Shown here: one piece after another, positions 2,956-53,290 of the stretch
How the letters are laid out: the number at the start of each line of letters is the position of its first letter
How positions within the stretch are numbered: the first letter of the stretch is position 1
NCBI GenBank assembly: GCA_964410865.1
Contig: CAYPIQ010000005.1
Coordinates: 7,037-71,036 of the forward strand
Reading direction: 5' to 3'
Length of the DNA: 64,000 nt
From: an uncultured Spirochaetales bacterium
Lineage (GTDB): Bacteria > Spirochaetota > Spirochaetia > JAFGDJ01
Notes under the pieces: generated by a model
Databases searched by the model: none
The model's input: the letters and a program-made list of their open reading frames with translations, nothing else
What the model was told of the DNA's origin: nothing
Translations under genes and position numbers: made by a program

Positions 2956-4218
2956 ATGGATCTGTTTGATAAATGTAACACCGACGCCGGTTATTTCGGG
3001 CGTTTCAGGCACCAGGGCGACAGTTACTTTACCCGGCCGGTTTTGGACCCCCAGCCGGGTAACAGGATGCTGTTCCACGGGAAAAAGCATATCATGTGGT
3101 CGGTCAATAATTATATAGGACTGGCCGGTCATGAAGAAATACGTAAAGAAGCCCTGGAAGCGGTGAAGGAATTCAGTGTAAGTGCTCCGATGGGTTCGAG
3201 AATGATGAGCGGAAATACCGAATACCATCTGGCTCTGGAAAATAAACTGGCGGATTTTTCCCGGAAAGAAGCCGCTTTTCTGTTCAATTATGGATACCTG
3301 GGAGTAATCGGCACTATTTCCTCTCTGGTTGGGCCGGAAGATACGGTCGTGATGGATAAACTGTCCCATGCATCCATCGTAGACGGTGTATTGCTTGCCA
3401 AGGCTTCGGGAGCAAAGATGAGGGTATTCAGGCATAACGACGCCTCTAATCTGGAGATGGTCCTCAAACGGGAAACCCGGGAAGGAAAGGGCGGTATTCT
3501 TGTTGTCGGTGAAGGCGTGTACGGTATGACGGGCGATCTGGCCGATCTGCCGGCGATAACGGAGGTCTGTAAAAAGTACGGCGCCCGGTTATTTATCGAC
3601 GACGCCCACGGATGGGGTGTTATGGGCGAGAACGGCCGAGGTACTGCCGATTACTTCGGGGTCCAGGATAAGGTCGATATTTATTTCGGAACCTTTGCAA
3701 AGGCTTTCGCTTCTATCGGCGGTTTTGCCGCGTCTTCCAAAAACGTGATCGACTGGATTATTTATAACGCCAGGACCCAGGTTTTTGCCAAGAGTCTGCC
3801 GATGGTCTATGTCCGGAGTCTTAAAAAGACCTTCGAGCTCGTCAAGGCCGGTGATGACCTCAGGGAAAAGATGTGGCAGAATTCCAACAAGCTCAAGGAA
3901 GGTATACGAGCCCTGGATTATTATGTCGGTGAAGGCGCTTCACCCATATGTGCCGTTTTTACCCCCAGCGGTAATGAAGAAGAAGGGCAGAAAATGGTTG
4001 CCTACCTCAGGGAGAAGGGGATTTTCGTTACCGCCGTTATTTATCCTGTAATTCCCCGGGGATTGATTATGTTCAGGATGATACCGACCGCCGTTCATAC
4101 GGATGAAGACATAGAAGTGACCATCAAGGTTTTCGCTGAAATGAAAACCGATCTCAAACTGAATCTTCCCGTCTCAACGGAAAACCTGGCAAATATTAAG
4201 AGAGCTTACGGGAAATAG
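2956..4218 (+). CDS. PLP-dependent alpha-oxoamine synthase; motifs resemble the cysteate acyltransferase (SulA/CapB) subfamily
   Basis: NNYIGL, SHASIVDG, DDAHG, GTFAK (PLP Lys249); subfamily-type motifs PMGSRMMSG, RTQVFAKSLPM, VIYPVIP..RMIPTA. Confidence 0.88.
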   Translation: MDLFDKCNTDAGYFGRFRHQGDSYFTRPVLDPQPGNRMLFHGKKHIMWSVNNYIGLAGHEEIRKEALEAVKEFSVSAPMGSRMMSGNTEYHLALENKLADFSRKEAAFLFNYGYLGVIGTISSLVGPEDTVVMDKLSHASIVDGVLLAKASGAKMRVFRHNDASNLEMVLKRETREGKGGILVVGEGVYGMTGDLADLPAITEVCKKYGARLFIDDAHGWGVMGENGRGTADYFGVQDKVDIYFGTFAKAFASIGGFAASSKNVIDWIIYNARTQVFAKSLPMVYVRSLKKTFELVKAGDDLREKMWQNSNKLKEGIRALDYYVGEGASPICAVFTPSGNEEEGQKMVAYLREKGIFVTAVIYPVIPRGLIMFRMIPTAVHTDEDIEVTIKVFAEMKTDLKLNLPVSTENLANIKRAYGK

Positions 4219-8934: not shown

Positions 8935-9185
8935 TATTTCGCTGCGGTGTTCGGTTACCTCTATCTCTATCGGGGGAATGTCAAAGACCTGCCGCCGTCG
9001 GTAATCTACTACCGGCTCCTGCGAGAGATCATTCCTACAGTGGCTGCACACAGAATGATGGTGCTCTATTATCCTGTCGGGATTCTCGACCATCTTGAGT
9101 GTCGAGCCTTTGTGCCCCTCATGGCCTCCGGGTTTTTTCCCCGATCGTTTCCTGCTCTGTTTCGGCGGTTTTTTCATTCAGTCGG
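8935..9185 (-). pseudogene. IS66-family transposase N-terminal fragment
   Basis: KKPGGHEGHKG and zinc finger CSHC...RRQVFDIPP..EVTEHR typical of IS66 TnpC; truncated at both ends. Confidence 0.8.
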
Positions 9186-9188
9186 AAA

Positions 9189-9231
9189 TGGTAAACTAAA
9201 TTGACCCCCGGGTGAAAAATAAAATTGACCA
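9189..9231 (+). mobile_element. IS21-family terminal sequence stub
   Basis: TG-initiated end with tandem AAATTGACC motifs at 9198-9206 and 9222-9230; no transposase follows. Confidence 0.5.
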
Positions 9232-9487
9232 GGTAGTGGAGAAAAAGGGGTCCAACCTTGTTCCCCGCCAGGAGAAGTTTCCGCTTTTAAGCTAAACTTG
9301 CCGATACTCATTTCCGTAGACTGACAGAAAGTTTTTCTCCCTCGTCCGACCTGAAAGAAAAAAGAGGGCACCCCCTGTTTACGCAGGTGAACGGGGGATG
9401 AGGTAACTGTGGTTAGAGCACAGTCGAATACAGTTTCGTTACTTCCGTCGGGCGAAAACGCTCGGGCGGCAGTACACGAAGCGGCTT

Positions 9488-9780
9488 TTACCGGACTTTC
9501 TCATTCCCTTTGCCCGTATGAGACTCGACAAGGTGATAGAGGCGGGTCGGGAGAGAGCCGGCGGGAGCACTGTCGAGGCCGTGTTGCCGTATCACGGATG
9601 TAATGCAGACCGATTCGGCCCTGCGGGTGTAGAGCATCACCCCGGTGGCGTAGCCCCAGATGGCCGCATAGGTCATGTGTCCCACAACGGTCAGCACCGA
9701 GCGAACGAGAAACACCTCGATTCCATAGATCGAGTAGAGGATGTTTTCGATGATGGCGAAGGCCAGGGCTACCCTTCGAC
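9488..9780 (-). pseudogene. PrsW-family intramembrane protease fragment
   Basis: Frame reads VALAFAIIENILY...RSVLTVVGHMTYAAIWGY (PrsW ENxxY and R...H motifs); N- and C-termini missing. Confidence 0.65.
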
Positions 9781-9863
9781 GTCGTGTTTTTGCACCCAGG
9801 TCGCACGGTCTCCCTGTTCAAGGAAAATCATTCTTTCCCTTGCGCCCCCCGGGAAATAGGCTT

Positions 9864-9885
9864 ATTATGTAGGTGAAAACATAAT
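9864..9885. promoter_or_regulatory. Palindromic operator candidate upstream of intI
   Basis: ATTATGT-N8-ACATAAT perfect 7-bp arms, ending 14 nt before the intI ATG. Confidence 0.45.
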
Positions 9886-9899
9886 TTTGGATAAGCAGT

Positions 9900-11084
9900 A
9901 TGGTTTTGGAAATCAGTGGAGACGGTAAAAAATCACTCCAGATAAAAACCCCATATCATGAATCTGTCGTAAATGCCATGCGCACCATTCCGGGGAGACA
10001 TTGGTCTGCCGTAAAAAAGGTTTGGTTAATCCCGGATACACCCTTTCACCGTGAAAAGCTGCTTTCTTCCCTGTATGAAACGAAACTCTTTACCTATCAG
10101 CCGAACCGGAAAGATGATTCAACTAATCAGAAGCATCTGTACCTTCGATTCCATCAGGCTGCCCGTACCCGTCATTTTAGCTCGAGGACGGAAAAGAGTT
10201 ACCGACAATGGATACAAAGATACCTCCACTACTATAACGGGCTCGAACCGGAAAATCTCACAGGGTCACATATCAACAAATTCCTTTCGTATCTTGCCGT
10301 GAAAAGAAAGGTAAGTCCCTCTACCCAGAATCAGGCTTTGGCTGCGCTTTTCTTCCTCTATAAACAGGTGCTCAACAAAAAGGTTGATGATCCTGATTCG
10401 ATCATTCGAGCGGAAAAACCTAAACGGCTTCCTGTTGTTTTAAGCAAAACAGAAGTGAAAAAGGTCATCTCACATGTACCCGAGGACAAAAAGCTAATAG
10501 CCGCTCTTCTGTATGGAACCGGAATGAGGTTGATGGAGTGTTTACAGCTCCGCGTAAAGGATATTGATTTAGAGTGTAATGAAATACGAATCAGGGATGC
10601 GAAAGGCGCAAAGGACCGGATCACGATGATCCCGGAATCACTGAAAACAGAATTGAAAAAGCAATTAACTCGCTCACAGTTGATTCACAAGCAGGATCGT
10701 TCTGCAGGGTGGGGCCGTGTACAGCTTCCCTATGCAATTGAGCGAAAATATCCGAATGCATCTGCAGAATGGCAATGGCAATGGGTCTTTCCCCAGCAAA
10801 AGCGATGGAACAATCCTGAGACTGGAGAAGAAGGAAGACACCACATAGATCCCTCTCTCGTGCAGAAAGCAGTAAAGAAAGCCGTTCTTGCAAGTGGAAT
10901 AACCAAGCGAGCCTCCTGCCATACATTCAGGCACTCATTTGCAACACATCTTTTGGAAGACGGCTATGACATACGAACAGTTCAAGAGCTGTTGGGCCAC
11001 AGTGATGTAAAAACAACAATGATCTATACCCATGTGCTGAATCGAGGTCCACAAGGAGTAAAAAGCCCCCTGGATGGGTTATGA
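9900..11084 (+). CDS. intI: Integron integrase with N-terminal extension (394 aa)
   Basis: SAM-like domain (SPSTQNQALAAL), GMR, KGAKDR, HTFRHSFATHLL, LGH, IYTH, plus the IntI-specific insertion GWGRVQLPYAIERKYPNA..WQWQWVFP. Confidence 0.96.
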   Translation: MVLEISGDGKKSLQIKTPYHESVVNAMRTIPGRHWSAVKKVWLIPDTPFHREKLLSSLYETKLFTYQPNRKDDSTNQKHLYLRFHQAARTRHFSSRTEKSYRQWIQRYLHYYNGLEPENLTGSHINKFLSYLAVKRKVSPSTQNQALAALFFLYKQVLNKKVDDPDSIIRAEKPKRLPVVLSKTEVKKVISHVPEDKKLIAALLYGTGMRLMECLQLRVKDIDLECNEIRIRDAKGAKDRITMIPESLKTELKKQLTRSQLIHKQDRSAGWGRVQLPYAIERKYPNASAEWQWQWVFPQQKRWNNPETGEEGRHHIDPSLVQKAVKKAVLASGITKRASCHTFRHSFATHLLEDGYDIRTVQELLGHSDVKTTMIYTHVLNRGPQGVKSPLDGL

Positions 11085-11266
11085 TATTAAGACATTGGAA
11101 AAGGAGAATTATACGGACCCGGATAAAATGGTTCTTTATTATGTGGGAAACCTATACTGTTTCTGAGAAGTGAATTACACAGTAACCAGAATATATTCAT
11201 AGCAGATTATACGGACAAATGGATACCAACCGGTGTTTATACGGGTCAGTAGAATTTATGTTATAT
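11085..11266 (+). other. attI region of the integron
   Basis: Core G/TTATAT at 11260-11266; GTTATATAGCAA is the exact reverse complement of TTGCTATATAAC at the end of cassette 1; three TTATACGG direct repeats upstream. Confidence 0.8.
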
Positions 11267-11316
11267 AGCAAAAAAAATTAAAGTAATATAATGAATAATT
11301 TAATAAGGGAATATAG

Positions 11317-12369
11317 ATGATAGAAATCTATTTTGATGAAGCAGGTAACACTGGACATGATTTATTAAATTCTGAGCAGCCCCTCTATGTTCTAAGTTCA
11401 ATAAAAATATTAAATGATGTAGCAAAGCAAAAATTAGAAAGTAGTTTTACTGATATTGATCTATTGCATTTTAAAAGGAAAAAGAATTCTGCCTCTGGAA
11501 GAAAAGAGATTCTTGATTTTTGGGATAAAAACTTTGATTTTTTGAACGAAAATAGTAAAAGTATAGTAATCCATAAAAAATACATGATTGTCTGTCAAAT
11601 GTTAAATTATTTGGTAGAACCACAGTTATATGAAGATGGAATTGATTATTATGATGCCGGGATGAATATTGGTCATTCAAATATGATGTATATGTGCATT
11701 CCTGGTTTTTGTGGTAGTGGTTTAGCCAATATGCTTTATAAAGCATTTATAAATATGTTTAAAATTAAAGATCAAAAATCAATAATTACATTTTATAAAC
11801 TATTAGATTTAATGGAGAAAAAATCTAGTTCGGAAGAATTTAAAACTGATATATTCATTCTTAAAAGATCGATAACAGAAATAAGTGAAACTCTACAAAT
11901 TGTCAATAAATATGTTTTAGATCCTTCTATGCATTCATTAATTTCTTTGATTACTCTATGGAATAATGAATTAGAAGAGGAATTCAATGTATTTCATGAT
12001 AGATCAAATACAATATTGAATCAAAAAGAAATCTTGGATTTTCTCAACGATATAGAAGGTGATGAACAAAGTATTGGATATGGAGAGTTTAAAGCAACAT
12101 TTCCTATCAAAATGGATAGCTTTCGATTTATTAGTAGTGATAACTTTTCAATAAAAATAGTAGATATAATTAGCAGCAGCTTATTATATGTATCAATAAA
12201 TGATGATGATTTTGCTAAAGAGCTTAATAAAATAATATCTAATTGGAAGTGGACTAATAATATTATGCCTTCTTCAAATGTAGAACCTATTCCAGAAAGA
12301 ATAAAACGACAAGGAGATATTGATTCATTAGATTTCTTTGCAAAAAAGATAATTGAAAAAGGATTGTAA
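11317..12369 (+). CDS. Integron cassette 1: DUF3800-like (RNase H fold) protein
   Basis: N-terminal IYFDEAGNTG and C-terminal IKIVDII motifs; very AT-rich; bounded by attI and attC1. Confidence 0.78.
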   Translation: MIEIYFDEAGNTGHDLLNSEQPLYVLSSIKILNDVAKQKLESSFTDIDLLHFKRKKNSASGRKEILDFWDKNFDFLNENSKSIVIHKKYMIVCQMLNYLVEPQLYEDGIDYYDAGMNIGHSNMMYMCIPGFCGSGLANMLYKAFINMFKIKDQKSIITFYKLLDLMEKKSSSEEFKTDIFILKRSITEISETLQIVNKYVLDPSMHSLISLITLWNNELEEEFNVFHDRSNTILNQKEILDFLNDIEGDEQSIGYGEFKATFPIKMDSFRFISSDNFSIKIVDIISSSLLYVSINDDDFAKELNKIISNWKWTNNIMPSSNVEPIPERIKRQGDIDSLDFFAKKIIEKGL

Positions 12370-12376
12370 AATTGCT

Positions 12377-12511
12377 ATATAACAACCACTTGGAGTTGAC
12401 CTGGCGGTGAATATGGCAAAGAGATTGTTGATTTGGAGAACAGGGGTTACAATGGTTAAAGTGATAGGGCTAAGTAAGGACAGCGCCAGGCAACTCAAGT
12501 GAACGTTATCT
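12377..12511 (+). repeat. attC1 (135 bp)
   Basis: R'' ATATAAC, L'' CACTTgGAGTTGaCCTGGCG, L' CGCCAGGCAACTCAAGTG, R' GTTATCT; two extrahelical bases. Confidence 0.93.
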
Positions 12512-12530
12512 TGAAAAAAGAGGAATATAG

Positions 12531-13445
12531 ATGAATAACTTACCTATTAAAATATGTCCAAAATGTAAAAATAATATGATTAATAATAATGAAGATGTTA
12601 TAACAGCTCAATCTTACAATGATTGTATAAGAAAATGTTTAAGATGCGGAATTGGATATTCAAACGCAAAATACAATCCCAAAATAATTTATAAGAATAT
12701 TGAAGATAATATCGCTAATGAAATCAAAGATAAGAATATTGAAGATATTATCAATAAATCTCTAAACATCAGAAATAGACCAACAAAATTAAATAAAGCT
12801 AAAATTTCGACATCAGAAGATGCATTAACCTATTCTTTTATGAAATATCTAATAGAAAGTAATCAAATAACAAAGCTGATAAAAATAATTGATTCTACAA
12901 TAAAAGAATTTAATAATATTGAAGTATACTTATGGGGAGTAAATATCGTTAATAATAATATTGAAAAGATTGAGACCCTTAAGACTATCTTAGTTAAAAA
13001 ATATAAGGAAAATTTAAATTCATTATCTGAACCGGATATAATAATTACAGGAGATACATTTACTATAATTATTGAAGTAAAATATAAAAGTCCAAATGAA
13101 GTGAAAAATACAAATAGTCTTCATAAATATATACGCAATAATTTTTATGATGATTTAGAAAAAGCAATAGAATGTGAGCATTATGAGTTAATAAGAAATT
13201 GGACAATACTAAATGAATTAGAAGAAGACAATGCAATATTAGTCAATTTAGGGGATATAAAACTATTTAATGATAAAAATAAATTAAAGCTAGAATATTT
13301 TGAAAAATCATTAAACCAAAATAATAAAAGAAAATTTATAAAATTAAAATGGGAAGAATTATTTCATTCTGATATATATTTCTCAGATACAATGAAAAAA
13401 TATTTAAAGAAGAAATTTTTCAAGATAACAACCACTTGGAGCTGA
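12531..13445 (+). CDS. Integron cassette 2: Zn-ribbon plus PD-(D/E)xK nuclease
   Basis: CPKC and CLRC pairs; SEDALT; SEPDIII...IIIEVKYKS; stop codon falls inside attC2. Confidence 0.75.
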   Translation: MNNLPIKICPKCKNNMINNNEDVITAQSYNDCIRKCLRCGIGYSNAKYNPKIIYKNIEDNIANEIKDKNIEDIINKSLNIRNRPTKLNKAKISTSEDALTYSFMKYLIESNQITKLIKIIDSTIKEFNNIEVYLWGVNIVNNNIEKIETLKTILVKKYKENLNSLSEPDIIITGDTFTIIIEVKYKSPNEVKNTNSLHKYIRNNFYDDLEKAIECEHYELIRNWTILNELEEDNAILVNLGDIKLFNDKNKLKLEYFEKSLNQNNKRKFIKLKWEELFHSDIYFSDTMKKYLKKKFFKITTTWS

Positions 13446-13555
13446 CATGGCGGTGAATGTGGCAAAGACATTGTGTTTTTGAAGGACTGGAGTTACAATT
13501 GCTAAGAAAGTGTTTTACTCGATGCGGCGCCATGCAGCTCAAGTGAACGTTAAAT
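13423..13555 (+). repeat. attC2 (133 bp)
   Basis: R'' AGATAAC, L'' CACTTgGAGCTGaCATGGCG, L' CGCCATGCAGCTCAAGTG, R' GTTAAAT; homologous to attC1 with compensatory changes. Confidence 0.93.
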
Positions 13556-13800
13556 TTCAAGATTGTGTACTAAATCAAGGCAAAAGAACGACGGTAGTCA
13601 GTGAGCTGGTAAAAGTGGTTACCTTATGGGTTTTCACTAATACAAAATATTTTATTTGTTTCTTATAGTACCACTTTTCCTAGCTCATCGGGGATAAGCT
13701 CTGATAGTACATCTCTTTCGATTTTGCCTTTGTTTACATTCATTCTTTATGAACGAACGTAGTCTTTCGAGATATCGATGAACGCTTTCGAGATCTTGAA
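13550..13800 (+). other. Integron cassette 3 body: ORF-less, internally palindromic
   Basis: Start GTTAAATTTCAAGAT matches the reverse complement of ATCTTGAAATTTAAC at 13793-13807; no long ORF; nested inverted repeats 13577-13730. Confidence 0.8.
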
Positions 13801-13952
13801 ATTTAACATGTCGTTGGAACAGCCAAAACCTTTTGTCACGGTTTTTGCGGTTCTTCTTTAGGAATGCTTGTTGTAACAACGCGGCAAAAACCGCGCCAAT
13901 CCTTCGGCCTCTCGGCCTCAGGCCGGTTTTGCTGCTCAACTCGTCGTTATGT
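13801..13952 (+). repeat. attC3 (152 bp, different family from attC1/2)
   Basis: R'' ATTTAAC, GTTGgAACAGCcAAAACC pairing with GGTTTTGCTGCTCAAC, inner stem CGGTTTTTGC/GCAAAAACCG, R' GTTATGT. Confidence 0.85.
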
Positions 13953-13978
13953 TGACGCCTTCGGCGCGGAGGAGAAAA

Positions 13979-14194
13979 ATGAAGAAGATGATTTGCTTTA
14001 CCTTATTTTTTCTATCAATGGGAGTGTATGCACAAGATATACAAACAACCACAATCTCAATATTCCAGAAAGCGTATAATGTTAAATTTATTGTCATATC
14101 AGGGGACGCATATATAAACTGGACAGATTTTATGGCCAATCAGCAAGGTAACAACTTAGATATCAACAAATTACATTTGTTTAACTCAACATAA
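13979..14194 (+). CDS. Integron cassette 4: small secreted protein (71 aa)
   Basis: GGAGG SD then MKKMICFTLFFLSMGVYA|Q signal peptide; cassette start GTTATGTTGA matches end TCAACATAAC. Confidence 0.7.
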   Translation: MKKMICFTLFFLSMGVYAQDIQTTTISIFQKAYNVKFIVISGDAYINWTDFMANQQGNNLDINKLHLFNST

Positions 14195-14215
14195 CAATAA
14201 AGCGGTAAAATTGTG
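14189..14215 (+). repeat. Truncated attC4 (R'' arm only)
   Basis: R'' ACATAAC present; no complementary L'/R' arm found downstream. Confidence 0.55.
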
Positions 14216-14242
14216 GAATCTTAATTCTTTCGGAGGATTTTT

Positions 14243-14319
14243 ATGAAAAAGATTCCATTAACTGAATTAGTGGAGGCAGTAGCCGCTGATTTGCGCCGAA
14301 CAAACTATACGCCGCGGAG
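14243..14319 (+). pseudogene. N-terminal stub of a tyrosine recombinase-like gene
   Basis: GGAGGA SD plus MKKIPLTELVEAVAADLRRTNYT, reminiscent of RIT-type recombinase N-termini; breaks after about 25 aa. Confidence 0.3.
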
Positions 14320-14592
14320 GATTGGTGGTCTATTAAAACTACCCTTTCCACCCACCAGAGAATGACGGTCGAGTATGTTACTAAAGATACCGAAGGAAGT
14401 CGTTTTCTCAATACCCTTAGGACGAACTCCCGGCTGGAGCCAGCGCATCTGGAGATATTTACGAAGCTGGGCTTGTCCGGCAGACCGCTGAACCGCCGTT
14501 TGTTAAAACGGAAAATCGGTAGTGATAACAAAAATAACCAACCTATTTTACAGGAGTGACTTAGCCTCTTTTTTGGCAAAGTTGGGTTAGGT
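14320..14592 (+). mobile_element. IS1634-like transposase C-terminal fragment and right end
   Basis: WSIKTTLSTHQRMTVE...EPAHLEIFTKLGLS; ends AAGTTGGGTTAG. Confidence 0.6.
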
Positions 14593-14705
14593 CTATTTGC
14601 CCGGTTTGAGGTACTTTGAAGACCAACAGGAGGTGCCTGTTCGCTCCAGAACGACGATTTCTGTCGATTTTAGGCGGAATGTCCCCATTTTCCCTGGTTT
14701 TCTCC

Positions 14706-14734
14706 TTGACACATAGGATCACTTTTCTTACAAC
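14706..14734 (+). promoter_or_regulatory. Sigma70-type promoter candidate for the fakA operon
   Basis: TTGACA-17 nt-TACAAC, ending 27 nt upstream of the ATG. Confidence 0.5.
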
Positions 14735-14761
14735 TTTTTACACGGATTTAGGTAAACTTCT

Positions 14762-16573
14762 ATGACGCAAACAGAAAATACGACAGCGGTAATAAGAGAT
14801 AGGATAGAGAATATATACAAGTATCTCTATCTACACAAAGAATACATAAACAGGTTGAATGTTTTTCCTGTTCCAGATGGCGATACCGGTCTTAATATGG
14901 CGCTGACCATGCAAGGTGCTTTGGCAAATATGCGCGATTATGAAGAAGCATCAATGCCGGCGGGAGAATATTTGAAAAATTTTGCTGAACAAATGCTGCT
15001 CAACAGTAGAGGGTGTTCAGGAGTCATCTTATCCCTTTACTGTCAGGGCGTCTCACAAGTAATTGAGAATAACGACTTTTCTAAAGAAAATATATATAGA
15101 GCTCTTGAAAACGGATATAAAAACGCGTACGAGGGCACCGAAGATCCGAGGGAAGGAACCATGCTTACGTTAATGCGTGAACTTAAAGACAAGTATGGTG
15201 AACTTATGAAGGGAGACGATGACCCTGTAAATATCACGAAACAATGTATCCCGTATTTAAAAGACGTTCTCAACAAAACTCCCGATATGTTGCCGGTACT
15301 AAAACAAGCCGGAGTTGTAGATTCCGGTGGCGCGGGATTCCTGATTATTCTCGAGGGAATTAATAGAAAGTTAAAAGGCAACGAATTGACTCTTAGAAGC
15401 TTGCCGGTTTCAATTATACTGAATATAAATAAAATTGCAAAAAAGTATCTCGACGGCAGACTTTCAAAATTAAATAAAAAAACTATCGAAGCTCTGCTTA
15501 CAAATATTGAGACCGAAAAGTTGCATAATTCTCGGTTGTCCAAAATAATGGAAGATATTGGGGGGGTCGTTCGGAATCTGCAGGATAATGGGAATCGATT
15601 GTCGAAGAAAGAAACAATTATTAATAGTCTAGAGGATATGGATGGTTCATGGAATCCTGAAATTAAATTCAAATATTGTACGGAATTCGTTTTAGAAACA
15701 GACCGAATATCATCAAAAGAGCAAATAAAAGGAATCATCGGCGGATACGGAGATAGTCTGATAATACTCAACAGCGGCGATAAATATAAAGTTCATATAC
15801 ACACCGATAAACCGGAAGCGGTTTTTAAAGATGTTTCAAAATACGGCAACCTTATATTTACCAAAGTCGATGATATGAACAAACAACACAAAAATCTCGT
15901 GAGTAACGATTCAATCGATTACGAACGAGAGAAAAGTGTTTTTTGTTTAGTTTCCGGAAAAGGATTTGCCGAAATCCTGAAAAAGCTCGGGGCCGATGAT
16001 GTATTCTGCTACGGAAAAAACAAGCCGTCCGTGGAACGGATCGTTAAAGAGCTAGACAGACTGAGAACCAAAAATATAATCGTCGCTGCCGACGACAAAG
16101 ATATTCTGATGGCGCTCAAATATGCTGGTTCGCTGAGTAAGTCGAATATACACATTGTCGAAGCCGATAATGTAATCTCGCTTATTAGCATGTTGCTAAA
16201 TATTTCAAAGGATTTAGATATTACCAATACAATTGAATCGATAATGAATAGTCTGAATAATATTCGTTTTTTTGGAATTGCTAAGGCCGTCAGAAATACT
16301 GCAACGGAATATGGTATAAAAGTTAATAAAAATGAGTTTTTTGCAATGTACAACGGCTCAATTATTCTTTCCGACAAGAACCTGAAAACACTGATGATTA
16401 AGGCAATTCAAAAACTGAGAAAAGATGAAAGTCTGATATCGTTATACCGGGGCGTCCGTGCCAAAAGAGAAAAGAGTTTTATTCCGAAACTGAAAGAAAC
16501 GTTTCCCGATTGTGAAATTGAAGAATATTACGGTGGGCAATATAAATTCGATTATTACGTAACCTTGGAGTGA
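14762..16573 (+). CDS. fakA: DAK2-domain fatty acid kinase catalytic subunit
   Basis: LNVFPVPDGDTGLNM, PREGTMLT, VVDSGGAG, YCTEF, KVHIHT, KVDDM, YYGGQ. Confidence 0.92.
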   Translation: MTQTENTTAVIRDRIENIYKYLYLHKEYINRLNVFPVPDGDTGLNMALTMQGALANMRDYEEASMPAGEYLKNFAEQMLLNSRGCSGVILSLYCQGVSQVIENNDFSKENIYRALENGYKNAYEGTEDPREGTMLTLMRELKDKYGELMKGDDDPVNITKQCIPYLKDVLNKTPDMLPVLKQAGVVDSGGAGFLIILEGINRKLKGNELTLRSLPVSIILNINKIAKKYLDGRLSKLNKKTIEALLTNIETEKLHNSRLSKIMEDIGGVVRNLQDNGNRLSKKETIINSLEDMDGSWNPEIKFKYCTEFVLETDRISSKEQIKGIIGGYGDSLIILNSGDKYKVHIHTDKPEAVFKDVSKYGNLIFTKVDDMNKQHKNLVSNDSIDYEREKSVFCLVSGKGFAEILKKLGADDVFCYGKNKPSVERIVKELDRLRTKNIIVAADDKDILMALKYAGSLSKSNIHIVEADNVISLISMLLNISKDLDITNTIESIMNSLNNIRFFGIAKAVRNTATEYGIKVNKNEFFAMYNGSIILSDKNLKTLMIKAIQKLRKDESLISLYRGVRAKREKSFIPKLKETFPDCEIEEYYGGQYKFDYYVTLE

Positions 16574-52297: not shown

Positions 52298-53083
52298 ATG
52301 GAGTACCGGAATCACCTTTACATGATTTTACATCCGAATCCCTCACTTGTCGCTTCGCAGTATAACCCGGACCAGTTCGCGACGCACTATATGTCGGGGT
52401 CGACGAGACACTATAACGGCAAGGTTATCTTTGCAGAAATAGATATCAACTATCGTCATGATTATCTGAATATAGACCGGGGCTTGAAAGAACTGGTGCC
52501 GCACGACGACGGAAGTCCCAAGGCGACCAAGTTTATTTCCACATACCGGGTACTGGAACACATAGATTTCGACGCTATCCAGCGCCTGTACCTGACAACC
52601 CCTTCGGCTATTGTCCTGGGTCTAGATCCGGCGCCGTATACAACGGTCCATCAGCCCGGTTTTATCAGGATATTCGCGGAAATAACCCCCATGAGGATGC
52701 TGGTCCTTACAAAATTAAACTTTCCGGAATTCGGCCGGTATATTACGGACCCGGATAATCCGAAAGGGGCTCCCAAGATTTTCTATACGCAGATCGATTT
52801 CGATATCGAGTATTTCATGCGGGAAATAAAGGAGAATCCCTTCCTCAATACTCCCCTGCCCAGCGTTCATTCTTCAAAGCTGCGGGACGCAATTATTGAG
52901 TTGCAGAATAATCCGGAGAAGAGGACTAAGGGCTTGAGCCTTGACAGCAATCTGAACCGTAAATCCTATAAATACCTGAAACACGGATTCATGTTTGCCT
53001 CCCAGAAAGGAACAAAGTTTTTCCCCATACCTCCTCTGGACGTTATCGAGGAAACGAATTATAAATTCTGGAAGGAAATGTGA
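52298..53083 (+). CDS. Hypothetical protein
   Basis: 261-aa ORF with AGGAGG SD, directly downstream of hppA. Confidence 0.75.
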   Translation: MEYRNHLYMILHPNPSLVASQYNPDQFATHYMSGSTRHYNGKVIFAEIDINYRHDYLNIDRGLKELVPHDDGSPKATKFISTYRVLEHIDFDAIQRLYLTTPSAIVLGLDPAPYTTVHQPGFIRIFAEITPMRMLVLTKLNFPEFGRYITDPDNPKGAPKIFYTQIDFDIEYFMREIKENPFLNTPLPSVHSSKLRDAIIELQNNPEKRTKGLSLDSNLNRKSYKYLKHGFMFASQKGTKFFPIPPLDVIEETNYKFWKEM

Positions 53084-53101
53084 TTGATCCGAATGTATCG
53101 A

Positions 53102-53160
53102 TGACTCCCCTGAAAAAAGAGGACTGGGAAAATGGGCAAATTCCTTAGTTAGGGGAGTCA
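53102..53160. mobile_element. 59-bp miniature IS3-type element
   Basis: TG...CA ends, TIR TGACTCCCCT/AGGGGAGTCA, flanked by a 4-bp direct repeat TCGA (53098-53101, 53161-53164). Confidence 0.65.
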
Positions 53161-53290
53161 TCGATTTTTAAAACCCCGCTCAAAAGGGGGGTGCACGACA
53201 ATTTCGTTTTCACCAACCACATTAAGCTCTTTTCCGTGCGGGCTTTGACATTCGGATAGATATATGTAAAATAAAGTGCTAAGGTGAAGT

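Follow-up and report, generated by a model that had tools for sequence, protein, structure and literature searches.

The window, a 64-kb stretch of DNA from a spirochaete-like genome, carries an integron whose integrase gene, intI, lies on the same strand as its cassettes (the "reverse integron" layout) and whose IntI bears an N-terminal extension of about 80 aa. Cassette 1 starts at the crossover between G11260 and T11261. The third cassette after intI in array order, cassette 3, spans 13550–13946 on the plus strand as a mobile unit of 397 bp, comprising a body of 251 bp (13550–13800; also given as 250 bp) together with its own attC as far as the crossover G13946. An earlier description made without database searches (the sequence-only reading) had ended the cassette at 13800; its true end is 13946, and 13801–13952 is its own attC. 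As in the Treponema denticola integron, intI is co-oriented with the cassettes, and cassette 3 lies within the array, with a small gene cassette downstream of it. Table 1 lists the coordinates of the features.

Table 1. Integron features near cassette 3 and structural elements of the cassette body
Feature	Position	Strand	Remarks
intI, integron integrase gene	9900–11084	+	TIGR02249, 453.5 bits against a cut-off of 265; Pfam Phage_int_SAM_4 and Phage_integrase
attI core GTTATAT	11260–11266	+	Complementary to attC1 R'' ATATAAC (12377–12383); by sequence reading
attC2, recombination site of cassette 2	13423–13555	+	Covariance model R1, 125.5 bits; nhmmer E = 9e-32; canonical bottom-strand fold
Outer stem, left arm	13549–13563		GTTAAATTTCAAGAT; 15/15 complementary to 13793–13807
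Middle stem, left arm	13571–13585		TAAATCAAGGCAAAA; 87% complementary to 13722–13736; one G-T pair, one mismatch
Inner stem, left arm	13602–13619		TGAGCTGGTAAAAGTGGT; 89% complementary to 13670–13687
Apical region, A+T-rich, 50 nt	13620–13669		Small ACAAA/TTTGT pair near 13650; weak promoter-like TACAAA-17-TATAGT
26-codon ORF	13663–13743	−	Judged not a gene; no Shine-Dalgarno sequence; no protein or family match in any frame
Inner stem, right arm	13670–13687		ACCACTTTTCCTAGCTCA
Middle stem, right arm	13722–13736		TTTTGCCTTTGTTTA
Two direct copies, ATGAACG...CTTTCGAGAT	13748–13794	+	CTTTCGAGAT at 13764 and 13785, 21 bp apart
Outer stem, right arm	13793–13807		ATCTTGAAATTTAAC; 15 nt, 100% complementary
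attC3, own site of cassette 3	13801–13952 (152 nt)	+	Covariance model R1, 14.8 bits, E = 0.007; match boundaries identical to those listed

The start of cassette 3, TTAAAT (13550–13555), is complementary to its own R'' ATTTAAC, and the next crossover is G13946|TTATGT; the same G|TTRRRY crossover and complementarity between start and R'' hold for cassettes 1, 2, and 4. The boxes of attC2 are R'' AGATAAC (13423–13429) and R' GTTAAAT (13549–13555), the last six bases of the latter being the first six of cassette 3, and its bottom-strand fold shows two bulged bases, both on the 3' arm. attC3 has the R''-L''...L'-R' architecture, with R'' ATTTAAC (13801–13807), an L'' opening with GTTGGAACAG, an L' closing with CTGCTCAAC, and R' GTTATGT. 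Its bottom-strand DNA fold (13803–13950; z = −4.5) comprises an R stem, unpaired spacers of 4 nt, and an L stem with two bulges (extrahelical bases) on the 3' arm, and its G+C-rich loop contains terminator-like hairpins on both strands. The attC sites of this array measure 133 to 152 nt. Cassette 3, standing in an array with IntI and an attI core, is thus a real cassette with a canonical attC3, and the earlier description of it as bona fide is borne out by the G|TT crossovers, by the attC itself, and by the covariance model that places attC3.

ORFs within the body alone reach at most 26 aa. A 52-aa ORF begins in the neighboring attC2, and an antisense ORF of 84 aa (255 bp, 13939–13685) with a TTG start crosses attC3 and has no ribosome-binding site; its length is above both published limits for ORF-less cassettes, namely, no ORF of >150 bp and no BLASTX match (Boucher 2006) and no ORF of >210 bp (Blanco 2024). 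Cassette 3 fits these definitions loosely rather than strictly. That either the 26-aa or the 84-aa ORF is a small-protein gene, or that a pseudogene persists in one frame, is very unlikely. Both ORFs do exist, and the longer one lies entirely within cassette 3; however, both lack the Shine-Dalgarno sequence that marks the three real cassette genes, where GGGAA, GAGGAA, and GGAGGAG precede the starts of cassettes 1, 2, and 4, respectively. Moreover, attC3 sequence accounts for 58% of the 84-aa ORF, whose product is very basic, while across the body each frame contains at least four stops, approximately the number expected (by estimate) from base composition. Translated in six frames, the body gave only two insignificant matches in Pfam and PHROGs (E = 0.07 and E = 0.03), a concatenated six-frame query gave none at E ≤ 10 among 5.8 billion protein clusters, and no gene is called at the body in the Logan assembly. 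The 251-bp body therefore holds no credible ORF, in agreement with the sequence-only reading.

Instead of a gene, the body contains three nested stems. The left arm of the outer stem consists of attC2 R' (7 nt) and an 8-nt extension, TTCAAGAT; the right arm consists of an 8-nt extension, ATCTTGAA, and attC3 R''. The middle stem includes the previously noticed arms AAGGCAAAA/TTTTGCCTT, the inner stem includes the TGAGCT and AAAAGTGGT arms, and a second AGCTC copy lies at 13697–13701. In the predicted fold, the direct copies of ATGAACG...CTTTCGAGAT form side hairpins. Reading of the sequence, its repeats, and its ORFs found every element that had been listed before (the arms, AGCTC, the CTTTCGAGAT repeat, and the 26-aa minus-strand ORF) in its place.

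The pairing in the body is far beyond chance. RNA folds of 13550–13810 gave z = −4.8 for the plus strand and z = −5.6 for the minus strand, and none of 200 dinucleotide shuffles was equally stable. With DNA parameters, the body reached z = −7.1 and −7.0 on the two strands, at nearly equal energies of −42.4 and −42.5 kcal/mol. All predicted folds given here are minimum-energy models, whose frequency in the ensemble is close to zero. Folds without the outer arms still gave z = −3.2 and −4.5. In a scan of the whole window in 260-nt segments, the body ranked first of 247 in self-complementarity. These data show the body to be an inverted repeat that is symmetric between the strands and exceptionally strong, and the RNAfold check, significant on both strands, upholds the exceptional structure that had been proposed for it. 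Since the strand energies are equal and only two of the 48 positions in the named stems are G-T pairs, the element resembles a DNA palindrome rather than a strand-specific RNA. Two gene-less comparators from related integrons were not unusually structured (L002 at 3474–4056, z = −1.0; a 392-bp unit in L022, z about 0), so gene-less cassettes do not in general require strong palindromy.

The 15-bp terminal complementarity had been taken as a mark of this cassette. A 7-bp R'/R'' pairing is present in every cassette by construction, and a further extension is common in the attC family to which cassette 3 belongs: across 15 cassettes, the median end complementarity was 9 bp, with a total of 9 to 15 bp in most, and the cassettes in the window showed 12, 14, 15, and 10 bp. 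The outer stem, in which attC2 R' pairs with attC3 R'' and the 8-bp extension follows, is thus a family-wide feature and not special; what is peculiar to cassette 3 is the two inner stems only. Because the cassette ends in this family generally pair past the 7-bp R box, outward pairing from that box is a maintained property, with cassette 3 as its extreme.

A hairpin bordered by R boxes might have arisen as a degenerate second attC (a fused cassette) or as a miniature inverted-repeat transposable element. The overall shape would suit such an origin, and the 9-mers beside the R boxes resemble the ends of cassette 2 (TTTCAAGAT-tgt...gag-ATCTTGAAA versus TTTCAAGAT-AAC...GTT-ATCTTGAAA). Nevertheless, Smith-Waterman alignment with attC1 to attC3 was at chance level, nhmmer with the family profile found nothing even at E ≤ 1000, and the covariance model that detects the divergent attC3 gave no match in 13556–13800 on either strand at E ≤ 10. 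In addition, the AAC/GTT triplets are not in the required positions, and the body is single copy in the window, with no copies in viral, genome, metagenome, or plasmid collections. At the sensitivity used, this origin is already largely refuted, and we regard it as extremely unlikely. The inner arms were also considered as the L'-R' and R''-L'' halves of attC1/2 and were rejected, as the Smith-Waterman scores were at chance and both nhmmer and covariance model R1 were null.

No relative of the body was found in viral, genome, metagenome, plasmid, or 5.8-billion-protein collections. A blastn search against plasmids returned a single 34-nt chance match, exact two-arm and direct-repeat patterns had 0 matches in viral contigs, and multiseed queries built from the stop-as-X translation produced pattern matches and no confirmed relative in viral, genome (4 seeds), and metagenome (5 seeds) contigs. 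An attC3-type pattern gave six matches in metagenome contigs, all by chance in unrelated sequence without attC features, while blastn against 21 gathered loci (182 kb) gave nothing significant and the comparator array L022 contained no relative. Most contigs with the nearest IntI relatives (P0005, P0007, and P0014) end just past intI. Exact-protein look-ups with IntI and the cassette 2 and 4 proteins recovered no contigs other than two that match the window at 100% identity; accordingly, cassette 3 has identical copies in two independent Logan assemblies, one with the whole cassette (L001) and one with its first 74 nt (L018). The homologous cassettes on which the proposed covariation test would draw were not found, these identical copies being the sole others. 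No mention of the sample accessions SRR2187629 and SRR8186049 was found in the papers searched. Non-coding cassettes are a class already known, and cassette 3 is a genuine, though orphan, member of it.

This orphan status also suits a functionless relic, in which a gene was lost or never present and inverted duplication, together with templated quasi-palindrome "correction" of frequently single-stranded DNA, left the palindromy behind as an unselected by-product. The very unequal spacers between arms (7 versus 56 nt and 16 versus 34 nt) are reminiscent of decay or patchwork, the right half of the body contains scattered short direct repeats, and the strand energies are symmetric. Against it, the three nested stems with their side hairpins make the strongest fold in 64 kb, no frame bears a trace of a decayed ORF, and two independent samples carry identical copies, although this last point proves recent identity only. 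We consider a relic rather unlikely, though a serious contender.

Gene-less cassettes can also carry promoters, and here such a promoter would drive the downstream cassette 4 (sense) or interfere with upstream transcription (antisense). The precedents give this a strong prior: ORF-less cassettes MMB37 and TMB4 had promoter activity and MMU23 did not (Tansirichaiya 2019, PMC6557892), and Blanco 2024 (PMC11014356) reports activity for most of 29 Vibrio gene-less cassettes and describes in silico promoter prediction as unreliable for them. The co-oriented intI, as in Treponema, and the TACAAA-17-TATAGT sequence at 13641–13669 in the A+T-rich apical region are consistent with this. On the other hand, the best sigma-70-like matches in the body scored 8/12 on either strand, none attaining the tool's threshold of 9/12, and inside attC3, at 13912–13930 (+), a terminator-like GC hairpin with TTTT after it stands in the path of any sense transcript. 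A promoter would also leave the nested stems unexplained. The regulated promoter offered by the sequence-only reading thus has no positive evidence from these searches, and we hold it to be unlikely.

The same hairpin at 13912–13930 could end a structured body transcript, that is, a cassette-borne small RNA acting in trans or in cis like sRNA-Xcc1. Significant RNA folds on both strands and the precedent of sRNA genes in ORF-less cassettes (cited in PMC6557892 and PMC8876359) fit such a transcript. No terminator was found within the body itself. Rfam 15 includes sRNA-Xcc1, group II intron domains, HEARO, and type I/III antitoxin RNAs; nonetheless, 13550–13950 matched none of its families at E ≤ 10, and the only two Rfam matches over 9000–16000 were to eukaryotic families, at E > 5 and outside cassette 3. 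A small RNA is further disfavored by the lack of a recognizable promoter, by the absence of clear strand asymmetry, with z-scores stronger with DNA than with RNA parameters, and by the want of homologues for covariation. It seems to us distinctly improbable, and the searches gave no positive evidence for an sRNA or for the suggested decoy or antitoxin RNA. The latter had been linked to "neighboring nucleases"; of the neighboring cassette proteins, one is a DUF3800 protein and the other belongs to no family and has a weak PADLOC match alone, and neither could be identified as a nuclease by sequence searches of Pfam, NCBIfam, PADLOC, and PDB. As cassettes move independently, a functional link of cassette 3 to cassettes 1 and 2 is not expected.

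In the reading that we prefer, no protein, and probably no dedicated RNA, is made from the body. Among the functions suggested earlier, a DNA structure that modulates attC folding appears to fit best, because the Watson-Crick pairing of the fold is strand symmetric and R boxes make up its outer stem; that the RNA folds are significant on both strands too counts against a purely DNA-level reading. We tentatively favor, as possible rather than probable, a non-coding cassette whose imperfect palindrome acts at the DNA level, or simply exists, as a continuation of its own attC stem.

attC sites function in single-stranded DNA structure, as folded bottom-strand hairpins, and an excised cassette would persist as a single-stranded circle. 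In that circle, attC3 R'' would pair with the reconstituted R', and the 8-bp extension and two inner stems would lengthen the R-box helix into a branched rod with about 70% of its bases paired, which would keep the attC hairpin closed against melting. The predicted circular bottom-strand fold leaves attC3 with its R box, spacers, L box, and bulges, stacks an end stem of 14 to 15 bp on the R box, and pairs 70% of the bases. In the array, the stems may instead join attC2 R' and attC3 R'' in a perfect helix of 15 to 17 bp that would out-compete the native 5/7 R boxes of both sites and thereby reduce excision at each of them. When attC2, body, and attC3 are folded together as a linear bottom strand (z = −7.05), a 17-bp pairing forms between R'2 and R''3, and R'3 pairs with R''2. 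A tendency toward non-recombinogenic alternative structures reduces attC use (review PMC8946536). Without the constraint of a gene, the body would be free to evolve toward pairing, or to drift there by templated quasi-palindrome mutation, and the pairing might benefit the cassette (a selfish minimal cassette), benefit the array (a lock), or be neutral. In a more specific form, cassette 3 would be a minimal selfish cassette, composed of a recombination site and a body that evolved as the outward continuation of the attC stem, its "cargo" being a DNA structure that acts on recombination. The excised strand would then fold into a rod resistant to nucleases and SSB, with attC closed and reinsertion efficient, and in the array its pairing would lock the R boxes of the flanking attC sites and stabilize the neighboring cassettes. 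We view this specific form as a doubtful proposition.

Several known systems share parts of this arrangement. Like attC sites, the body hairpin is an imperfect palindrome whose outer stem is literally made of R boxes. Unlike them, its R box faces the wrong way, with GTT/AAC at the open end and not toward the loop, and it shows neither the L box, spacer, and bulge pattern nor a covariance-model match; at 259 nt, it is also about twice as long as the attC sites of its array. Frpo/ssi-type single-stranded-DNA promoters and priming sites of conjugative plasmids are imperfect hairpins of 250 to 330 nt, active only when single stranded. The resemblance to these is in shape only, as no −35/−10 pair can be placed in any stem of cassette 3 and no link to conjugation is evident. 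Like the sRNA-Xcc1 cassette of Xanthomonas campestris, cassette 3 is non-coding and could yield a structured transcript, whereas it differs in matching no Rfam family and in having no recognizable promoter. The promoter-active ORF-less cassettes of the Treponema-type oral metagenome (Tansirichaiya 2019) and the Vibrio superintegron (Blanco 2024) are likewise short and gene-less with a normal attC; in contrast, cassette 3 has no convincing in silico sigma-70 promoter, and its body is an exceptionally strong palindrome. The terms "hairpin" and "secondary structure" led to no mention of such a palindromic feature in the Blanco 2024 text (PMC11014356). Paralogous non-coding cassettes of Vibrio also have no long body ORF and no translated match, but usually have close homologues or paralogues (>80% identity), of which cassette 3 has none in the window or the collections searched (Boucher 2006, PMC1382264).

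Non-coding cassettes make up 6 to 49% of some arrays, and the functions proposed for them are selfish element, promoter, and transcribed RNA (Boucher 2006, PMC1382264). The roles tested so far are two only, promoters and one sRNA. As a single orphan sequence, cassette 3 carries small weight; if its palindromic body does alter attC folding, excision, or insertion, it would add a third role, that of a cassette acting on the recombination machinery through DNA structure, and it would provide a simple natural substrate for how sequence outside attC affects attC folding. Perhaps more useful is a by-product of the analysis, a spirochaete attC family in which cassette ends pair over 9 to 15 bp, well past the canonical 7-bp R box.

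The window contains a chromosomal integron whose integrase gene and cassettes occupy the same strand, which is the "reverse integron" layout of Treponema denticola (PMC6557892). The nearest relatives of the integrase, IntI, share only 50 to 69% identity with it, and most of those named by source derive from Treponemataceae, Rectinemataceae, and Spirochaetales MAGs. Cassette crossover points were read directly from the sequence. Each cassette starts with six bases that complement R'' of its own attC, a requirement of the recombination mechanism. Upstream of the crossover at 11260, the attI region holds two copies of TTATACGGAC and one of TTATACGGG (11109-18, 11197-206, and 11237-45), which, by analogy with DR1 and DR2 of attI1, are candidate accessory integrase-binding repeats. 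The protein of cassette 2 (ORF 12531-13445) has an N-terminal CxxC...CxxC zinc-ribbon-like motif and a D...E-x-K-like stretch, EPDIIITGD...IIEVKYK; its sole PADLOC match is weak (PDC-M15A, E = 7.5e-4), and on these motifs it may be a putative defense-type nuclease. The end of cassette 4 carries R'' ACATAAC (14189-95) and a hairpin, AGCGG...CCGCT, within 14189-14330, with no GTT-type R' box, and the attC covariance model finds no site there. The array appears to finish in a site that is degenerate and probably fixed, ahead of the housekeeping genes (YloV/FakA-type kinase) that begin at 14762.

Features of the integron, paired segments of its cassettes, and Logan contigs identical to the window (window coordinates)
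Feature	Coordinates	Strand	Description
Integron integrase ORF	9900-11084	+	TIGR02249, 453.5 bits (cut-off 265); Pfam Phage_int_SAM_4 and Phage_integrase
attI core	11260-66		GTTATAT
Cassette 1	11261-12505		350-aa DUF3800 protein
Cassette 2	12506-13549		304-aa protein, no known family
Cassette 3	13550-13946		Self-pairing ORF-less cassette
Cassette 4	from 13947		81-aa signal-peptide ORF
attC1	12377-12511		Very homogeneous 135-nt family
attC2	13423-13555		Same 135-nt family as attC1
Paired ends, cassette 1	11260-71/12372-83		12 bp, perfect
Paired ends, cassette 2	12505-18/13416-29		14 bp, perfect
Paired ends, cassette 3 (outer stem)	13549-63/13793-807		15 bp
Paired ends, cassette 4	13946-55/14186-95		10 bp, perfect
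Middle stem, cassette 3	13571-85/13722-36
Inner stem, cassette 3	13602-19/13670-87
Contig L001 (SRR2187629)	9572-14361		100% identical to the window
Contig L018 (SRR8186049)	12376-13623		100% identical to the window

When one genome per species was scanned by pattern, the attC1/2 family also turned up in a large array of a Spirochaetia MAG (JAXHMY01) and on contigs from four further MAGs; the family alignment, A1, has a mean column identity of 86%. The family covariance model, R1, gives scores of 157 and 125 bits to attC1 and attC2, respectively. For all three sites, attC1 to attC3, the minus (bottom) strand gives the canonical fold, with R and L stems, unpaired spacers, and two bulged bases on the 3' arm of the L stem. 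R1 also assigned the divergent attC3 the exact span 13801-13952 (14.8 bits, E = 0.007); therefore, cassette 3, already taken for a bona fide cassette in the sequence-only reading, is genuine and complete, with a length of 397 bp made up of a 251-bp body plus attC3. The attC3 variable loop (13833-13935) has a G+C content of 49%, versus 35% in the body, and on both strands carries terminator-like GC hairpins with T runs downstream (13912-30, plus; 13908-13885, minus). In the attC1/2 family, the "variable" loop shows strong conservation across genomes (A1 columns ~50 to 80; window 13471-13499) and holds TTGTTG-17-TACAAT (TTGTGT-17-TACAAT in attC2), a weak promoter-like motif inside the recombination site.

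Every arm and repeat that the sequence-only reading had described in cassette 3 is present where it was placed, and the nested self-pairing it proposed withstood both shuffled-fold tests and a scan of the whole window. The RNA fold of 13550-13810 gave z = -4.8 on the plus strand and z = -5.6 on the minus strand, and the fold of 13549-13807 with DNA parameters gave z = -7.0 and z = -7.1, respectively; none of 200 shuffles was as stable as the native sequence. These folds include the outer arms; without them (13564-13792), the RNA z-scores were -3.2 (plus) and -4.5 (minus). When the whole window was scanned in 260-nt steps, this stretch ranked lowest in combined z-score among 247 segments. The second most structured segment owes its rank to a 24-nt inverted repeat (ATCGATGACTCCCC...GGGGAGTCATCGAT, 53097-53165) just past the ORF at 52298-53083, which looks like an ordinary terminator hairpin. 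Two gene-less cassettes from related integrons served as comparators and were not unusually structured: a 583-nt body without a called gene (L002, 3474-4056) had z = -1.0, and a 392-bp cassette of L022, with one 15-nt long-range inverted repeat (GGCACATTCACATTT/AAATGTGAATGTGCC), had z between -0.4 and +1.1. Judged against these two, the strong palindromy is a peculiarity of cassette 3 and not a general feature of gene-less cassettes. L022, the contig of IntI relative P0014, carries five such 392-bp cassettes in tandem directly after attI (11420-14160), 94 to 100% identical and without a called gene, plus three copies of an ~537-bp unit; within each 392-bp unit lie a 35-codon Cys-rich ORF and a normal attC (GTAGAAC...GTTCTAC). 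These units are a paralogous short-cassette family with no called gene in a non-Vibrio integron.

The three stems of cassette 3 differ in what they owe to the cassette itself. The outer stem consists of attC2 R' paired with attC3 R'', extended by eight further pairs, and seven of its pairs are present in any cassette by construction. Comparable extensions occur in cassettes 1, 2, and 4, and across 15 cassettes of the same attC family the perfect end run has a median of 9 bp, whereas chance would add about one-third of a base pair to the 7 bp of the R box; the cassette ends of the window and of L002-L011 pair over 9 to 15 bp. Thus, the 15-bp end complementarity had been correctly noted, yet it is a family trait and not a mark of cassette 3, and this spirochaete attC family seems to maintain pairing that extends outward from the R box. 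An ~80-aa extension ahead of the SAM-like domain of IntI (residues 1 to 80; window 9900-10140), which matches the HARP domain weakly (E = 0.013), could relate to these longer R-box stems; the IntI relatives are similar in length. One 9-mer, TTTCAAGAT/ATCTTGAAA, lies directly against the R boxes at either end of cassettes 2 and 3, in swapped order (12508-16, 13418-26, 13555-63, and 13793-801; also 13765-73 and 13786-94), so that a direct repeat flanks attC2; TTTCRAGAT occurs eight times in the window versus 1.9 expected. What sets cassette 3 apart is its pair of nested inner stems, together with the side hairpins.

The longest internal ORF of the body has 26 codons, the minus-strand ORF already remarked on; a 52-codon ORF starts inside the neighbor's attC2, and an 84-codon TTG ORF is antisense and passes through attC3. 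None of the three has a Shine-Dalgarno sequence; each of the three real cassette genes is preceded by one. Six-frame conceptual translations matched no Pfam or PHROGs family better than E = 0.03 and none of 5.8 billion protein clusters at E ≤ 10, so that a small protein is largely excluded and very improbable. Still less probable, and likewise largely excluded, is a degenerate attC or MITE: the body gave chance-level Smith-Waterman scores against attC1 to attC3, no match to the attC family HMM even at E ≤ 1000, no R1 match on either strand of 13556-13800, and no extra copy within the window. A cassette-borne sRNA is doubtful; a terminator-like hairpin lies within attC3 on the plus strand, whereas no promoter, no Rfam family (Rfam 15, E ≤ 10), and no strand bias was found. 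An antitoxin or decoy for "neighboring nucleases" finds no support, as neither neighbor is demonstrable as a nuclease, and cassettes are independent mobile units, so that a functional link is not expected. A promoter cassette, unlikely though less so than an sRNA, has the strongest precedent among the rivals: two ORF-less cassettes of the Treponema study showed promoter activity and a third did not (PMC6557892), and a majority of 29 Vibrio gene-less cassettes were active (PMC11014356). However, cassette 3 offers it no sequence support, and the stems are left unexplained. A consensus scan of the body found neither promoter nor terminator, and the best matches of a laxer scan reached 8/12 (TACAAA-17-TATAGT, 13641-69, plus strand; TCGAAA-17-AAGAAT, minus strand).

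Several features argue for a role at the DNA level rather than through a product. The DNA-parameter folds are equal for the two strands (-42.4 and -42.5 kcal/mol), the base of the structure consists of recombination-site boxes, and outward pairing seems to be maintained in the family. DNA parameters also gave stronger z-scores than RNA parameters, and G-T pairs occupy 2 of the 48 positions in the three stems. In the predicted fold of the excised single-stranded circle (bottom strand, DNA parameters), attC3 keeps its canonical form, a 14- to 15-bp end stem stacks directly on the R box, the remaining body folds into a single long arm plus two small hairpins, and pairing involves 70% of bases. 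When the bottom strand is instead folded as a linear piece spanning attC2 to attC3, it gives a four-way structure (z = -7.05) in which attC2 R' pairs with attC3 R'' (17 bp) and attC3 R' with attC2 R'', replacing the native 5-of-7 R boxes. According to the integron literature, alternative non-recombinogenic structures reduce attC use (PMC8946536). From these folds and that precedent we tentatively infer that the body is a continuation of the attC palindrome, which would stabilize the recombination hairpin in the free circle and compete with proper folding of attC2 and attC3 in the array. Nearly as likely is a functionless relic that took its form through inverted duplication and quasi-palindrome mutation, consistent with the very unequal inter-arm spacers and with a right half that is a patchwork of short direct repeats. 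If the body does continue the attC palindrome, cassette 3 might even be a minimal "selfish" cassette whose cargo is a DNA structure acting on its own recombination, which we consider improbable.

Cassette 3 belongs to a known class, the ORF-less (non-coding, gene-less) integron cassettes, which make up 6 to 49% of Vibrio arrays (PMC1382264) and 20% of oral Treponema-type cassettes (PMC6557892). Unlike the described examples, cassette 3 is an orphan whose body forms an exceptional palindrome that merges with the recombination-site stems. No relatives of the body were found in PLSDB plasmids, or in IMG/VR, one genome per GTDB species, and JGI metagenomes, the latter three searched with conceptual translations as multi-seed queries (reach, DNA relatives at ~85 to 90% identity and above); all matches to a pattern derived from the attC3 arms were due to chance. 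The sole other copies are on two Logan contigs. One of these, L018, is an independent assembly that begins inside attC1 and breaks off immediately beyond the left arm of the inner stem. Assemblers tend to break at inverted repeats, and the extent of L018 suggests that short-read assemblies fail at the repeats and at the inverted repeat, which may be one reason why such cassettes are under-represented in databases.
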